Shown here piece by piece: positions 9,576-13,831 of a DNA stretch of 64,000 nt. The notes beneath the pieces were generated by a model, which ran no database searches, was not told the DNA's origin, and saw nothing but the letters and a program-made list of their open reading frames with translations. The stretch is from Waddliaceae bacterium (GTDB lineage Bacteria > Chlamydiota > Chlamydiia > Chlamydiales > SLFE01): NCBI GenBank assembly GCA_963771045.1, contig CAVYRW010000004.1, positions 256,001-320,000 of the forward strand, read 5' to 3'. Each line of letters opens with the position of its first letter. Positions within the stretch are counted from its first letter, which is position 1. Position numbers and translations under genes: made by a program.

Positions 9576-10028
9576 TCTATTGCCCGGTAAGAAGAGAGTG
9601 GGTTGCTAAGCTTCCCGAAGAGGTCGTTCGGCAAAACCTTATCAATCTCATGACAGACATGCTTGGTTTTCCTGCGCATTCACTAACTGTTGAAAAAGCG
9701 CTCCGTCAATTTCCCCACTTATCTCAAACTGCCGATTTGCCCGATTGCCGGGTCGATATCGCTTCAATCGTCCCGGGAATACATCCCGATTATGAACTCT
9801 ATCCGCTGATCGTAATCGAGTGCAAGGCGGTTCCTTTAACTTCCCGTGTGCTGCAGCAAATCGTTGGATATAACTACTATCTGCAGGCCCCGTTTATCGC
9901 CATCGCCAATCAAAACGAGATCAAAACAGGCTGGTACGACCCCAGCAAATCCGAGATATCAATACGTCTCGGGTCTTCCGGCTTATGGGGATTTACTAAA
10001 ATCCGTGATCTCCCCCGACGACTCCTGA
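9572..10028 (+). CDS. Stand-alone type I restriction HsdR N-terminal-like (PD-(D/E)XK) domain protein, frameshift near 9958
   Basis: IYCPVRREWV..PEEVVRQ, VEK, RVDI, IVIECKA, QIVGYN. Confidence 0.8.
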
Positions 10029-11585
10029 TTCGTTTTCAAAGAAGTAGTAAGTCAGGATGTGGGGGTTGCTTGAGGTGGCTGTCATCCAGCCAACGTTACC
10101 TTGAAGGAACTGCTCCAATTCGTCGTCCCGTTCGATGAGGGATATGCCGTGCGGGGGGAGTGTAGCGGTTCTTTGAAGTGTCTCGGTGTCTTCGGAGCGG
10201 TAAAATGCCAGGTCGATTTCTGCTGAGCGGGTGTAGTTTTTGTGTTGGGACGAATTGACGATCCAGATCGAGGCTTTTCCATTCTCTCCCGCGAGCACGG
10301 GGCACCATTTAAATGTGAAAGGCTTGTTGTCCCACGAGGGGATGAAAGGCTGCAGATTAGTGCAGATATTGCAGGGGAATTGACCGCCTAGCGTTCCGAT
10401 ATCGACAGCGCATTTGATGCGCGAGGGAATGCGGCTGCCTTTTTCGGTTTTGGCGATGAGGCGGGCAGTTAACTTTGGGTCGCTATCGATACCCATCTCT
10501 TCGCAAAGATCAGCAAGGAAAATCTTTTGGAATTTATTTAGAGGGGCCTCAATGTTTAGGGCTGCTTCCTTTTTGCCCAGAAGCTTTCCTTCCCGATTGT
10601 AGATCTCAACGTCTATGGAAAACTTCGAGGGGGAATAAATCGGGTAAAAAGTGGCATTCGTGAAGTGATTGCTGCTTATGATAAGGGGGATCATTAACGT
10701 TGCCGGATACCAGCCTTGCTTCTCCTCTTGCCAATAATCGGCTTCTGCATCGGCATCGGTGCAGTCATAATATGAATGCGTAATGGCAAGAGTCTCGGGA
10801 TTTGACTGGATATTTCCGACGATCAATCGGGGAAACATCCAGGAGACGTCAAACCGAATTTTAGCGGCCCCCGGTTTCCCTTTTAAAAAGGTTTGCAAAT
10901 CGCAATGGTCGGAAGGAAAAATCCATTTGGTCTCATAGGGTTTTAAAGTTCCAAGCCCGAGCTTTGTTTTGAGGGTTTCACCTTCTGCGTTATAAAAGGT
11001 CATATCGATCGAAGCGCCTGGAACAGGATCGATTCCATTGATTAAAGTGAAGAAAGGCTTTTGATTCTCGTTGGCAACTACATTGAAGCCCGATTCGGGA
11101 ACCGATGCGATGGAATTGGCAGACATGTCGTCAAAGTCATTGTACACTCTTTGGGCGGTGTGGACGACGGTATTGAAATAGGGGCCGTAATAGTTGATAG
11201 TGGTAGCCGGGAAGGGAAAAACCATCGGGAGGGAAGAGTAAAATTCGCACTCAAGGCTTCCCCGAAAAGGCTGGCCGGGGTCAAGTCCTGCCAGCTTGAG
11301 CTGATCTTTGAGTTCCAGGGTATGGACTCTGGGATTGTCTATGGTCTCGGAAGAGCGGGCGAGAACTGCGCCGTTTTCGGATCTAAGCGTATAAACCCCT
11401 GTAATTTGAGTGATTTGCCTCTTGAGAAGCCAATAACCCATAAAGAGAACCCGGCTTGAAGCCTCATTTGTTTGTATTACGGGAAAGATTGAGGAAGCCC
11501 GAAAGACAGGCTTTCTTTTAACCTGTTTATTTTGAGTTTTTTGAAGAGATTCTAAATGGTCTTTATAACTGCGCATATGGAACAT
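9996..11585 (-). CDS. Hypothetical protein with four internal beta-rich repeats
   Basis: Intact 529-aa ORF with a recurring I-D-x-x-F/Y-Y-N-x-E-G segment. Confidence 0.75.
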   Translation of the reverse strand: MFHMRSYKDHLESLQKTQNKQVKRKPVFRASSIFPVIQTNEASSRVLFMGYWLLKRQITQITGVYTLRSENGAVLARSSETIDNPRVHTLELKDQLKLAGLDPGQPFRGSLECEFYSSLPMVFPFPATTINYYGPYFNTVVHTAQRVYNDFDDMSANSIASVPESGFNVVANENQKPFFTLINGIDPVPGASIDMTFYNAEGETLKTKLGLGTLKPYETKWIFPSDHCDLQTFLKGKPGAAKIRFDVSWMFPRLIVGNIQSNPETLAITHSYYDCTDADAEADYWQEEKQGWYPATLMIPLIISSNHFTNATFYPIYSPSKFSIDVEIYNREGKLLGKKEAALNIEAPLNKFQKIFLADLCEEMGIDSDPKLTARLIAKTEKGSRIPSRIKCAVDIGTLGGQFPCNICTNLQPFIPSWDNKPFTFKWCPVLAGENGKASIWIVNSSQHKNYTRSAEIDLAFYRSEDTETLQRTATLPPHGISLIERDDELEQFLQGNVGWMTATSSNPHILTYYFFENESGVVGGDHGF

Positions 11586-11612
11586 ATAAAGGATTCATGT
11601 TAAAATAAAAAC

Positions 11613-12059
11613 ATGCCGGAAAAAAATCCCTTAGAGCCTTTGTTGGATCAAATTTCCAAAATCCTTCAGACCTTCGATGAAAAGAAGGATCAAAAACTTG
11701 AAGGCGATCCCACTTCTCAGGATATTGCCGATTTGATCAATATTACAAGTCGTGTCGAAGCTATGAAAGAAGCCTTTGAGATTGCGAAAAAAGAGCAGGG
11801 AATCACAGATGAAGAGATATCAAAAGCAATGCGCGAGAATCGCGAGCGTCTTTCCGAAAAGGACAAACAGATCCTCGATCGAATTGAGAGAATGAGAAAA
11901 GAAATTCATATGGATTATGAGCTCATCTCGACTTCGATTGAAAATGAGCGCCGGAAAAAGATCAAAGGGGGGCGCATGTTCAAAAAAGGGAAACATAAAA
12001 AAAGCAAAAGTCAAAAATCTCTCCATATCAGCTTCCGCAAAGGCTGGAAGAAAATGTGA
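11613..12059 (+). CDS. Hypothetical helical protein with a very basic C-terminal tail, coupled to maf
   Basis: 148-aa ORF; its TGA overlaps the next ATG (TGATG at 12057-12061). Confidence 0.75.
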   Translation: MPEKNPLEPLLDQISKILQTFDEKKDQKLEGDPTSQDIADLINITSRVEAMKEAFEIAKKEQGITDEEISKAMRENRERLSEKDKQILDRIERMRKEIHMDYELISTSIENERRKKIKGGRMFKKGKHKKSKSQKSLHISFRKGWKKM

Positions 12060-13831
12060 TGTCCCAATTCGAGAAAAATCTAGAACTCTTTGCACATAGC
12101 AATCCGAAGCATGCGATTCGTGTTGCCGAAGTCGAGCCTGCGGATCCGTTTGACTACAATGCCGCCGAATGGTTCAAAAAGCTTTCCCTTTCGGGCCAAG
12201 ACATTCTCTATATCTTCGGCATTGATTTAGGACAGGCTTACCTTGCTGCCAAAGAATGGCTTCAGAAAAATTCCGACAGGCATCTTGTGTTTTTGGAAGA
12301 TGATCCGACAAAAATTCGCTTATTTCTGCAGCAGGAGACAGCTCGGGAAATACTGCTCAGCCCCCATGCTCACCTTTTTGCCTTTTCCGAAATTTCTGAA
12401 GAAGATCCGGTGTTTAATTTGCTTGGCTGGAGTTTCATTCAGCAGCAAATCTTTTTTGCCTCGCTTCCCGAATATCAAGACCGCAGGGAAAATGACTGTC
12501 AGATGCTGAAACAGCTAATCTTTTATGAATCGGCCAATAAAAATGAAATTGTGGAAGAGTACATGAAATACGGGATTGTGTATTACCGGAATTTCTACCA
12601 TAACTTAATGCTTCTCCACCGCTCTTTTCACGGCAATCGGCTTTTCGGCAAATTTCAAAACGTTCCTGCCATCATTTGCGGCGCCGGTCCTTCCCTGAAA
12701 AAAAATATCCATCTTCTTCATGACTTAAAAGACAAAGCGCTCATTTTGGCCGGAGGGTCTGCCTTGAATGCCCTTTGCAAGGAAGAGATCCTTCCTCATT
12801 TTGGCGCCGGCATAGACCCCAATCCAACTCAGTATTACAGAATGATGGGGCACTCGGCAAAGAGCATTCCCTTTTTCTACCGTCCAAGAATGCACTATGA
12901 GGCATTTCGTTCGTTGAGCGGCCCCTGCCTCTATATCAACGGCGCAGGAGGCTACGATACGGCCGAGTGGATTGAAAATGAACTGGGAATTGTTGACAGC
13001 ATTGTCGATGAAGGACACAATGTCGTCAATTTTTGCACTGATATCGCAAGGGAGCTTGGCTGCAATCCCCTTATTTTTGTGGGAATGGACTTGGCCTACT
13101 CCGATTTAAAATCCTACGCGGAAGGGGTTGTGGAAGATCCCGATGTTACCGAAGAGCAGATCACCGGGACCGAACTTTTTGAAACCTCTGCCGTTTTGCG
13201 CGAGGATATCCACGGGAATCAAGTGTATACTATGTGGAAATGGATTGCGGAGTCGGATTGGCTTGCGGATTTTTCCAATGAGCACTCCGAGCTTACAATT
13301 ATCAATTCTACGGAAGGGGGAATCGGTTTTCAGGGAAATCCCGAATATTCCCTTGGCTGAAGCGGCAAAGCGGCATTTGAAAAAGCGCTATTCTTTCGAC
13401 AAAGAGATTGCCGCCGCTAATTGAACAGGCGGCCATGCCCAGTGTGACTCATGAAAAGGTTCTTGCTGTGGTTGGCAAACTTCAGGAGAGCCTGAGCCGG
13501 TGCATCGACGCTTTCGACCTCCTTATTGAAGAAGGGAACCGTATCCAGAAACAAGTGGAAGAGGGAAAGATATCCCGAGACTTTGCAAACAGGTCTTCAG
13601 GCTTTGACGGAAACAGAGCTGATGGAAGAGGCTGCCTACAGCGCAGTTTTGGATATTTTCAATACCATGTTCGCCCACATGAAGCAGCGGGATTTTCAAA
13701 GCATCAAACTCGAAGAGGATGAAAGAAAGAAAAAAATCAGGCTTTTGGAACTGACGGACGAAAAGTATCTCTTCTTAAGGCAGACTGCCGAGGCTAACTT
13801 GATCCTCATAAGCGAGGCTTTAGGTCGATAA
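12059..13831 (+). CDS. Motility-associated factor (Maf/DUF115) glycosyltransferase family protein, ~590 aa, frameshifts near 13330, 13405 and 13570
   Basis: LYIFGIDLG, PAIICGAGPSLKKNI, ILPHFGAGIDP, GHNVVNF..LGCNPLIFVGMDLAY, IINSTEGG; helical C-terminal part continues in other frames. Confidence 0.85.

Follow-up and report, generated by a model that had tools for sequence, protein, structure and literature searches.

Gene content of the maf locus

The window analysed here is a 64,000-nucleotide stretch of a contig from a Waddliaceae bacterium. The features relevant to this study are the following.

8943..9575, plus strand: hpf, ribosome hibernation/sigma-54 modulation protein, a syntenic anchor (PF02482, PF16321)
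9572..10138, plus strand: gene of an HSDR_N_2-domain protein, a syntenic anchor (PF13588, 8e-13), with an extra base at 9953
9996..11585, minus strand: p529, a 529-aa ORF with four beta-sandwich domains in its AlphaFold2 model
11586..11612, no strand: divergent spacer between p529 and p148, 27 bp between the ORF ends (36 bp with the MRSY start of p529)
11613..12059, plus strand: p148, an ORF for a small helical protein that ends in a lysine-rich tail, its stop overlapped by maf
12056..13831, plus strand: maf, a Maf/DUF115-family glycosyltransferase gene (PF01973 match), about 590 aa once insertions are discounted
13832..15191, minus strand: atoC/ctcC-like sigma-54 activator with receiver, AAA+ and HTH_8 domains (Pfam and NCBIfam matches), its 5' end, about 15191, being estimated from how long the orthologue in the same-genus genome G249 is (452 aa)
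32183..33166, minus strand: pseB, UDP-GlcNAc 4,6-dehydratase of the pseudaminic acid pathway (TIGR03589, 451.4 bits, cut-off 407.75)

The gene arrangement described in the earlier note was confirmed. Depending on whether maf starts at GTG 12056 or at ATG 12059, it shares 4 or 1 nt with the end of p148, in agreement with the proposed translational coupling to a 148-aa helical gene, and the 27-bp divergence from a 529-aa repeat protein was likewise found. No sigma-54-like site was detected in this 27-bp spacer. The atoC stop at 13832 directly follows the maf stop at 13831, giving the zero gap that had been noted; since the two stops are adjacent, the genes lie tail to tail, and atoC is a syntenic neighbour of maf, not a member of its operon.

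The Maf-family protein

The first frame of maf encodes 434 aa and contains the motifs GAGPSL, GMDLAY and INSTEGG. The protein matches PF01973 (MptE-like/DUF115) with 149.6 bits against a cut-off of 34.6 (E 9.3e-44, profile positions 2–170 of 171), and the gene thus belongs to the Maf/DUF115 family, as had been claimed. In other bacteria, Maf enzymes attach sialic-acid-like sugars to flagellin. The best NCBIfam match was NF050051 PseD, with 57.6 bits against a cut-off of 670 (E 8.7e-16, about 380 positions aligned); these scores rule out the window's Maf as a PseD orthologue and make it a distant relative instead. A Pfam search reported no N-terminal Maf domain PF20157 (Maf_flag10_N) in the window's Maf, while a long Maf paralogue in another chlamydial genome (G122) matched it weakly (E 6e-4, 19.7 bits, below the 23.5 cut-off).

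A search of the PDB with the single Maf sequence gave no match, but a profile built from 15 chlamydial Maf orthologues matched 5mu5_A (E 3.1e-5) across the GxGPS region. This 666-aa entry, whose molecule name is 'Uncharacterized protein' and which we take to be the Magnetospirillum Maf, was the only PDB sequence match of the profile. The aligned 15 orthologues share 67 invariant columns with a mean column identity of 46%, and the Parachlamydia homologues are named 'motility associated factor glycosyltransferase family protein' at NCBI.

The name 'MptE-like' given to PF01973 in Pfam, and likewise to some chlamydial records at NCBI, could suggest that the protein is no glycosyltransferase but a pterin diphosphokinase like MptE, or some other enzyme of the PF01973 fold that uses nucleotides. 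Such an assignment is extremely unlikely for a protein of about 590 aa in which N- and C-terminal regions flank the central domain, and which has PseD as its best NCBIfam match, 5mu5_A as its sole PDB sequence match, a paralogue weakly matching Maf_flag10_N, and a link with p529 and NeuB (see below).

Frame breaks in maf

The C-terminal 160 residues of Maf fall in other frames, due to three breaks, all within the last 500 nt. Compared with the maf gene of G249, which is an intact 590-aa frame with 98% identity over the window's first frame, the window has extra single bases at 13332, 13419 and about 13577–13579. Public metagenome contigs lack the extra base at 13332 (runs X1 and X4) and at about 13577 (X1), with a depth of 2–5 at the missing bases and with site 13419 lying outside contig coverage. 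Extra bases at positions 14711 and 15103 break the atoC gene in the same manner, while its 452-aa orthologue in G249 is intact; the extra base at 14710/14711 is missing in all four runs (X1–X4), and that at 15103 is missing in X4. One-nucleotide insertions of this sort also occur in the HSDR_N_2 gene (9953) and in a gene at 8628, and cydA, cydB, a monooxygenase gene and NeuB are split in this genome as well. Since the same type of insertion breaks atoC, the HSDR_N_2 gene and other genes, the three maf frameshifts are probably assembly errors, and the reality of the frameshifts, which the earlier note had considered damaging to its proposal, finds no support at the two covered maf sites or in the same-genus genome.

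Conservation of the locus and the small gene p148

The neighbourhood of the locus is common to most chlamydial families sampled, with the syntenic order hpf, HSDR_N, (p529), small protein, one to four maf copies, and atoC. In a set of 20 relatives' loci, which were hand-picked, non-random and include related genomes that are not independent, the HSDR_N gene adjoins the maf cluster in 18, and a maf is immediately preceded by a p148-family gene in 16. The spacing in these 16 loci ranges from -16 to +49 nt, with one case of +392; the small gene overlaps maf in nine of them and is absent from the remaining four of the 20. In each of the 13 p529 loci fetched, p529 and the small-gene/maf block point away from each other. 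The neighbours are therefore conserved together with maf, as had been anticipated. The hpf/HSDR_N/atoC locus of a flagellated genome (G001) likewise includes a Maf.

Members of the p148 family are 137–188 aa long and are conserved at both ends, with an N-terminal PLxPLL and a C-terminal KKKFKRLGGxxxWKPL. The matches of p148 were chlamydial hypothetical proteins only; no similarity was detected outside chlamydiae, and no Pfam domain was found in p148 or in its matches. The predicted structure comprises four helices at low confidence (pLDDT 66.7, pTM 0.40), and a structural search with this model yielded no match (best E 2.1). Coupled to maf and retained upstream of maf genes in most of the relatives, p148 is predicted to be a dedicated Maf partner or adaptor, perhaps setting acceptor specificity like GlfM, discussed below.

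The divergent gene p529

Orthologues of p529 begin at the fourth residue of the window's protein, MRSY, and the true start is therefore probably at 11576. No Pfam or NCBIfam match was found for the protein. Its AlphaFold2 model (pLDDT 83.8, pTM 0.86) consists of four beta-sandwich domains, and profile comparison revealed internal repeats, with the second domain resembling the fourth (83.5% probability, E 8e-6) and the first resembling the third (E 0.007), in line with the repeat protein noticed earlier. A clear structural match was obtained for only one of the four domains: residues 424–529 match TM1070 (1nc7_A) with Z 11.6, rmsd 2.1 and 96 of 116 residues aligned, followed by ASRT (2ii7_A) with Z 8.7, while the next match had Z 6.6. 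Searched against PF07100, the 13 aligned p529 sequences gave no match at E values up to 5. Between chlamydial families the protein shows about 40–54% identity, and its domain ends carry invariant His, Asp, Cys and Asn, so that an enzymatic role is possible.

The p529 gene is present in 35 of 301 chlamydial genomes, all 35 of which have a full-length NeuB (compared by eye). Among 15 non-chlamydial loci of the p529 family, NeuB lies within 9 kb in 12, one further locus contains PseB, PseC and a cytidylyltransferase, and a TylF-like methyltransferase gene is located directly upstream in 14. The occurrence of p529 relatives in nonulosonate clusters of other phyla makes this protein look like a sugar-pathway accessory, not an acceptor. 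It is predicted to be a cytoplasmic accessory of the nonulosonate pathway, possibly sugar-binding. The earlier note had offered both neighbours of maf as substrate, chaperone or pathway components; for p529, the NeuB/Pse cluster contexts favour the last of these roles and speak against that of a substrate.

Nonulosonate pathway genes

The PseB encoded 18 kb from maf (about 20 kb in the earlier note) scores over its family cut-off and also matches PF02719 (2e-95). A PseC-like transaminase was found with 411.9 bits, just under the 423.5 cut-off, and a single fused ORF combines CTP_transf_3 (PseF-like), GNAT and NeuB/PseI-like domains. No TIGR03590 match for PseG was found in the genome; the sole match to the GT28 C-terminal domain is at C4:596717-597193, elsewhere on the chromosome. 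A separate CTP_transf_3 match (1.3e-57) is probably KdsB. The Pse-type genes are scattered in the genome and are not clustered with maf. Most of a CMP-nonulosonate pathway, for which the earlier note had asked, is thus present.

Flagellar genes and distribution of Maf among chlamydiae

No matches to flagellin (PF00669 Flagellin_N, PF00700 Flagellin_C), to rod/hook proteins (Flg_bbr_C) or to FliS were found in the genome, which is 90.6% complete, in agreement with the absence of flagellin assumed in the earlier note. As a general rule for chlamydiae this absence does not hold, since flagellin scored over the cut-off in six of 300 chlamydial genomes, five of which are Maf-positive. These genomes, together with the incompleteness of the one studied, leave room for a flagellin that was missed, being either in the unassembled 9% or too divergent, and that is modified by Maf in the usual way. 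We find this hardly credible: besides the empty searches in the genome itself, the three other genomes of the same family, two of them 98–99% complete, have no Flagellin_N match, and at least 236 Maf-positive chlamydial genomes lack a flagellin over the cut-off.

Overall, Maf was detected in 241 of the 300 genomes, often as two to four paralogues. This distribution also bears on whether the locus is a decaying relic of an ancestral flagellar glycosylation island, without a function here. The three frame breaks, the lack of flagellin matches, the scattered Pse genes and the missing PseG would fit a relic. However, the breaks are missing from G249 and from the public contigs at the covered sites, similar insertions or splits affect the atoC, HSDR_N_2, 8628, cydA, cydB, monooxygenase and NeuB genes, and a gene so widespread and paralogous, and invariant in 67 columns of the 15-orthologue alignment, is very unlikely to be decaying.

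A full-length NeuB is encoded in 78 of the 300 genomes, and 77 of these also have Maf. About 164 Maf-positive genomes (241 minus 77) therefore have no full-length NeuB, and nonulosonate cannot be the donor phylum-wide. In the one such genome checked for weak NeuB matches (G045), these belong to the DAHP/KDO8P-synthase family (DAHP_synth_1).

Proposed function of the chlamydial Maf

Since no flagellum genes were found and the Maf neighbourhood has been kept across chlamydial families, Maf likely decorates some other protein. We propose, with a probability of roughly 0.55, that an intact Maf-family transferase puts a pseudaminic-acid-like sugar on a non-flagellin protein. The sugar would be supplied by the scattered Pse-type genes of the genome, p148 would act with Maf as a dedicated partner that may fix acceptor specificity, and p529 could bind or handle the nonulosonate as an accessory. 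The chlamydial Maf system probably goes back to a flagellated chlamydial ancestor that used it to glycosylate flagellin, and was probably retained for a new acceptor once the flagellum had been lost. Flagellar proteins are called 'an ancient chlamydial trait' in a legend of one source, of which a part was covered (PMC5604735). No paper on such a chlamydial Maf system was found in the limited literature collection searched. The overall interpretation of the earlier note is supported; a type III substrate, as suggested there, would be one candidate acceptor.

Several observations were counted against the main reading. For the pathway and the enzyme, they are the missing PseG, the PseC-like score below cut-off, the scattering of the Pse genes, the undetected PF20157 and the low PseD score; at the phylum level, the Maf genomes without NeuB and the presence of p529 in only 35 of 301 genomes. 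For p148, they are its restriction to chlamydiae, its low-confidence model, its position upstream of maf, unlike that of GlfM, and its absence from four of the 20 loci.

The many Maf genomes without NeuB, the DAHP_synth_1 assignment in G045 and the probable KdsB could also mean that the acceptor to which chlamydial Mafs give an ulosonic acid is not a protein but, for instance, lipooligosaccharide or another envelope glycan, or that these Mafs use CMP-Kdo instead of a nonulosonate. Clostridial and Geobacillus Mafs have been reported, in the parts of the sources covered, to be able to transfer Kdo and Neu5Ac (10.1101/2020.06.03.131540; PMC11339370). On the other hand, the genome and its family have PseB, PseC-like and PseI-like genes, all but one of the genomes with a full-length NeuB carry Maf, and p529, linked to nonulosonates in other phyla, adjoins maf; moreover, the characterised Mafs in the literature covered modify proteins, and the Kdo transfers reported there went onto flagellin Ser/Thr. 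We therefore consider this alternative rather improbable.

Extending the preferred reading of a non-flagellin protein acceptor to the phylum, one could tentatively hypothesise, although we regard this as doubtful in its entirety, that protein O-glycosylation takes place in the cytoplasm of most chlamydiae outside the Chlamydiaceae, by a system inherited from the flagellin-glycosylating machinery of a flagellated ancestor. Its present target would be an acceptor other than the flagellum, such as a surface protein of the elementary body or a protein exported by type III secretion. Pseudaminic-acid-like sugars would serve as donors in genomes with NeuB, and perhaps Kdo in the others; the small basic helical protein and MORN_2 modules would be new kinds of Maf specificity factors, and p529 would stand for a new family of accessory proteins in the nonulosonate pathways of various bacterial phyla.

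Comparison with known systems

The chlamydial Maf resembles the Maf flagellin O-glycosyltransferases of Campylobacter, Aeromonas, Shewanella, Clostridium and Geobacillus, and the solved 5mu5, in its central PF01973 domain, which carries GxGPS and GxDL motifs, in its length of about 600 aa, and in being encoded in a genome with a Pse-type CMP-sugar pathway. Unlike the flagellin-modifying Mafs, it comes from a genome in which no flagellin or flagellar genes were found, is encoded in a chlamydia-specific locus with hpf, HSDR_N and atoC rather than in a flagellar/Pse island, and scores far under the PseD cut-off. The chlamydial Maf paralogues bear MORN_2 repeats, whereas for Maf-1 the part of the literature covered describes a TPR domain.

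The closest analogue of p148 could be GlfM of Shewanella oneidensis, which, according to the portion of the report covered, is small and helical, has its gene next to maf-2, binds Maf-2, is required for flagellin glycosylation, and carries an essential aspartate in its last helix (10.1101/2023.12.03.569772). In both systems, as far as that portion describes GlfM, a small helical protein of no other known function is encoded beside a Maf without an obvious acceptor-binding domain. However, GlfM is a protein of 89 aa, reportedly encoded downstream of maf-2, and a predicted four-helix bundle, while p148 family members (137–188 aa) are encoded upstream of maf, and p148 has a conserved basic tail and a low-confidence model without a fold match. 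The two proteins are likened by description and by the adjacency of their genes to maf, not by sequence.

The ASRT and TM1070 proteins of the ASRAH superfamily are described, in the part of the source covered, as predicted sugar-binding beta-sandwiches whose solo domains tetramerise and which also occur as dyads and tetrads, with gene contexts suggestive of sugar binding (PMC2739507). Unlike the ASRT family, the p529 alignment has no PF07100 sequence match, and the SHEshChhN signature is the published ASRAH one, not established in p529. Nevertheless, the C-terminal domain of p529 is predicted to adopt an ASRT-like eight-stranded beta-sandwich fold, and the protein shares with the ASRAH proteins, as described in that part of the source, an arrangement of four beta-sandwich domains and a sugar-pathway context.

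The maf locus

The three genes described in the earlier note, encoding a Maf protein, a 148-aa protein (p148) and a 529-aa protein (p529), were all recovered by ORF listing and from the sequence.

Genes of the maf locus in the window
9996-11585, minus strand: p529 ORF, 529 aa (ORF listing and sequence)
11613-12059, plus strand: p148 ORF, 148 aa, divergent from p529 (ORF listing and sequence)
12056 or 12059 to 13831, plus strand: maf-like ORF, overlapping the p148 stop codon

The 27-bp divergent spacing between p529 and p148 was measured as claimed, the coupling of maf to p148 is borne out by the overlap of the maf start with the p148 stop, and the zero gap between maf and the sigma-54 activator gene atoC consists of two abutting stops, that of maf at 13831, of genes on opposite strands. 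Pfam family PF01973 was found within residues 1-434 of the maf frame (E 9.3e-44), and the flagellin modification protein PseD matched the first frame distantly (E 8.7e-16, 57.6 bits versus a cut-off of 670); the predicted product is a member of the Maf family. Beyond residue 434, maf runs on in other frames as far as 13831.

Control of p148 and p529 by sigma-54 was considered and dropped: the pattern TGGCAC-N5-TTGCW, a consensus searched with up to two mismatches, occurred 19 times in the window versus 28.4 expected, and never ahead of either gene. Differences between the window's own genome (G000) and G249, which belongs to the same genus, are too sparse for a usable selection test: p529 has 6 synonymous and 5 non-synonymous differing codons, p148 none of either kind, and maf, over its first 425 codons, one of each.

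Elsewhere in the window, a 352-aa ORF (26088-27146, plus strand) that directly follows a DDE transposase gene matches, in its C-terminal part, the family of AvrB_AvrC avirulence proteins (PF05394, E 2.5e-13). Two proteins with eukaryote-type domains are also encoded, a 513-aa BTB/POZ domain protein (17265-18806, plus strand) and a 221-aa F-box protein (29129-29794, minus strand).

Frame breaks in maf and neighbouring genes

In G249, maf is open over 590 aa and the activator gene over 452 aa. A 9.5-kb alignment of the window with G249 mapped the breaks to single extra bases.

Single extra bases in the window relative to G249
8628 and 9953: two genes upstream
13332, 13419 and 13579: maf
14711 and 15103: atoC
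15830: a downstream gene

Genes are likewise split elsewhere in G000, namely cydA, cydB, a monooxygenase gene and a NeuB-type gene. Contigs from four public metagenome runs (X1-X4), with a depth of only 2-5, lack the extra bases of maf at the two sites they cover, 13332 (X1, X4) and 13577 (X1), site 13419 being outside their coverage, and those of atoC at 14710/11 (X1-X4) and 15103 (X4); some of their pieces match the window without mismatch over hundreds of bases. Since the extra bases are missing from G249 and from the covering public contigs, the breaks, which the earlier note had regarded as an objection if real, are probably assembly errors, and maf is probably intact. A proxy based on ORF length and coding density did not distinguish the G000 assembly from the relatives' loci.

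The G000 assembly carries sporadic 1-base insertions outside long homopolymers, with roughly one gene break per kb here, and its gene calls therefore need frameshift-tolerant reading.

Flagellar genes and the sugar pathway in G000

The G000 assembly comprises 2.57 Mb in five contigs. Flagellar genes are lacking: in this 90.6% complete genome, Flagellin_N, Flagellin_C, the rod/hook C-terminal domain and FliS were all without a match, in agreement with the supposition of a lineage without flagellin. Most of a Pse-type pathway is predicted in the same genome, including the pseB gene that had been noticed near maf.

Candidate Pse-type pathway genes of G000
32183-33166 of the window: PseB, over its curated cut-off
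about 21 kb past the window: PseC-like transaminase, just below its cut-off
0.9 Mb away: cytidylyltransferase, GNAT and NeuB/PseI in one ORF, frameshifted

For PseG, no match was found in G000; of the CMP-nonulosonate pathway for which the earlier note proposed a search, most is thus predicted to be present.

The composite frame (G000:C4:1172967-1174993; 10956-12994, minus strand, in the fetched locus L006) joins a PseF-like cytidylyltransferase, a PseH-like GNAT and a NeuB/PseI synthase, and a HAD-type hydrolase gene lies directly downstream. Many other chlamydial NeuB frames span 505-565 aa; therefore, fusions seem common.

Distribution and synteny of maf in chlamydiae

A survey of 300 chlamydial genomes, searched with Maf, Flagellin_N and NeuB, revealed Maf matches in 241 (about four fifths), with 2-4 tandem maf copies in many genomes; Maf was absent from one family with genomes of about 1.1 Mb (0/29) and from two others (0/18 and 0/5). 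Flagellin_N exceeded its cut-off in six genomes, five of them Maf-positive, and thus at least 236 Maf-positive genomes show no flagellin. NeuB matches were present in 108 genomes and were full-length and strong in 78, as counted from the table; the weak matches of the single genome checked were DAHP/KDO8P-synthase family proteins. Maf occurs in 77 of the 78 genomes with full-length NeuB. About 164 Maf-positive genomes are without it, and the donor there, if any, must therefore differ. Since transfer of Kdo by Mafs is described in the available text of two papers (10.1101/2020.06.03.131540; PMC11339370), CMP-Kdo is a candidate donor in these genomes. Two strong NeuB genes lie on one contig of G037, a genome of the Maf-less family f3; chlamydial nonulosonate synthesis can therefore occur without Maf.

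The maf locus is syntenic across chlamydial families. Among 20 relatives' loci, a non-random sample drawn from the top-scoring matches to Maf and p529 plus three more large families, the recurrent order is hpf, an HSDR_N_2 gene, in some cases p529 on the opposite strand, the small-protein gene, one to four maf genes and often atoC; the flagellated chlamydial genome G001 shows this order as well. The window Maf clusters with short Mafs (559-747 aa) of other families, including G001, in a quick, unrooted tree without outgroup, a grouping taken as a hint (SH-aLRT only 86).

At several loci (L065, 10384-10908; L066, 10463-11320; L067, 10217-11059; also L041, L043, L045-L047, L049 and L051), Mafs are accompanied by MORN_2 repeats, which are carried C-terminally by long Maf paralogues (850-1014 aa) as fusions or encoded by separate genes (167-300 aa) between or after the maf genes. 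By analogy with the TPRs of Maf-1, they may serve as an acceptor-binding part. No MORN_2 match was found in G000.

The p148 family

In 16 of the 20 chosen relatives' loci, a maf gene is directly preceded on its own strand by a p148-family gene, and conservation with maf, on which the earlier proposal depended, thus holds for this neighbour. The spacing ranges from -16 to +49 nt, with one case of +392 across an unread stretch, and the two genes overlap in 9 of the 16 loci. Sequences of the family diverge quickly (13-54% identity with the window copy), with both ends kept: a PLxPLL-like motif at the N-terminus, and at the other end a basic tail that closes with KKKFKRLGGxxxWKPL. The sole Pfam match was a sub-threshold one to ARMH3_C, NCBIfam gave none, and a profile search returned 18 proteins, each of them either unnamed or a chlamydial hypothetical protein. 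The model comprises four helices at low confidence, and a Foldseek search with it gave no structural match (best E 2.1).

The small-protein profile weakly matches the coiled-coil C-terminus of a long Maf paralogue (L041, 10215-13259, minus strand, residues 892-1014; E 6e-5), which may reflect composition only or hint that the Maf tail is related to the small protein.

The p529 family

A search of 301 chlamydial genomes gave p529 in 35, in single copy and 38-54% identical, and all 35 carry full-length NeuB (tables compared by eye). In at least 21 of the 34 relatives, p529 shares a contig with a maf match and is no more than 6 kb from it, and in eight it is on another contig or far from maf; for the other five, no maf coordinates were among the matches listed.

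No match to p529 was found in Pfam or NCBIfam, Foldseek returned only generic tandem Ig/macroglobulin matches (TM about 0.1), and the clusters given by the protein atlas were unnamed, ASRT appearing only at 0.80. Four beta-sandwich domains make up the model (pLDDT 83.8, pTM 0.86), and its start is not signal peptide-like; profile comparison supports an internal duplication, so the label 'repeat protein' was apt. [quoted passage not shown]

An exhaustive profile search yielded 738 cluster representatives. Fifteen non-chlamydial loci, retrieved with a 5-sequence alignment, belong to Flavobacteriales, Alpha- and Betaproteobacteria and Nitrospinaceae; NeuB lies within 9 kb in 12 of them, one further locus holds PseB, PseC and a cytidylyltransferase, and a TylF-like methyltransferase gene is directly upstream of the p529-family gene in 14. 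None of the 15 contains Maf. Because of these NeuB/Pse genes and the TylF-like partner, p529 belongs with genes of nonulosonate synthesis or modification, and it is unlikely to be a glycosylation acceptor. Of the roles offered for the two neighbours (substrate, chaperone or pathway component), p529 thus fits the last and hardly the first. The TylF-like partner was not found in G000 (tblastn, 1e-5).

In the non-chlamydial loci L073-L086 (about 8150-10590 in each), the pair of a TylF-like O-methyltransferase gene and a p529-family gene, the latter matching no Pfam family, is kept within nonulosonate clusters, which often also carry a GATase/HisF-like pair.

Proposed system and comparison with known systems

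Maf enzymes are known as flagellin-specific. NCBI names homologues in Parachlamydia, including Parachlamydia acanthamoebae, 'motility associated factor glycosyltransferase family protein'; therefore, Maf homology in chlamydiae is already on record. Parachlamydia acanthamoebae is culturable in amoebae. A literature search limited to main texts outside subscription journals turned up no paper that connects chlamydiae with Maf, DUF115, pseudaminic acid or nonulosonates, and the words glycosyl, Maf and sialic are absent from the available text of a paper on flagellated marine chlamydiae, a legend of which describes flagellar proteins as 'an ancient chlamydial trait' (PMC5604735).

The best-supported reading combines an intact Maf-type transferase, a Pse-like CMP-sugar pathway that would supply its putative donor, an acceptor, presumably a protein, other than flagellin, and two partners: p148 would be a dedicated small partner of Maf and p529 an adjoining accessory of the sugar pathway. 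Such a system would have been inherited from a flagellated ancestor. A flagellin-linked Maf family is kept at one syntenic chlamydial locus, almost always without flagellin. If these Mafs glycosylate proteins, this would be nonulosonate (or Kdo) protein glycosylation of a non-flagellar acceptor in obligate intracellular bacteria, with a bearing on the way in which surface or secreted proteins of chlamydial cells are presented to their hosts, amoebae and animals. Two new candidate partner families emerge, one of small helical proteins and one of four-domain beta-sandwich proteins accompanying nonulosonate genes in several phyla.

p529 resembles the ASRT/TM1070 superfamily, for which a sugar-binding role is predicted and tetramers, dyad forms and tetrad forms are described (PMC2739507), in the fold of its last domain, but differs in giving no PF07100 sequence match. 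The nearest precedent for p148 is GlfM, likewise a small helical protein with a gene beside maf: this 89-aa protein, a predicted four-helix bundle whose gene adjoins maf-2 in Shewanella, is reported to bind Maf-2 and to be required for flagellin binding and glycosylation (10.1101/2023.12.03.569772). Judging by gene position, p148 may act as GlfM does.
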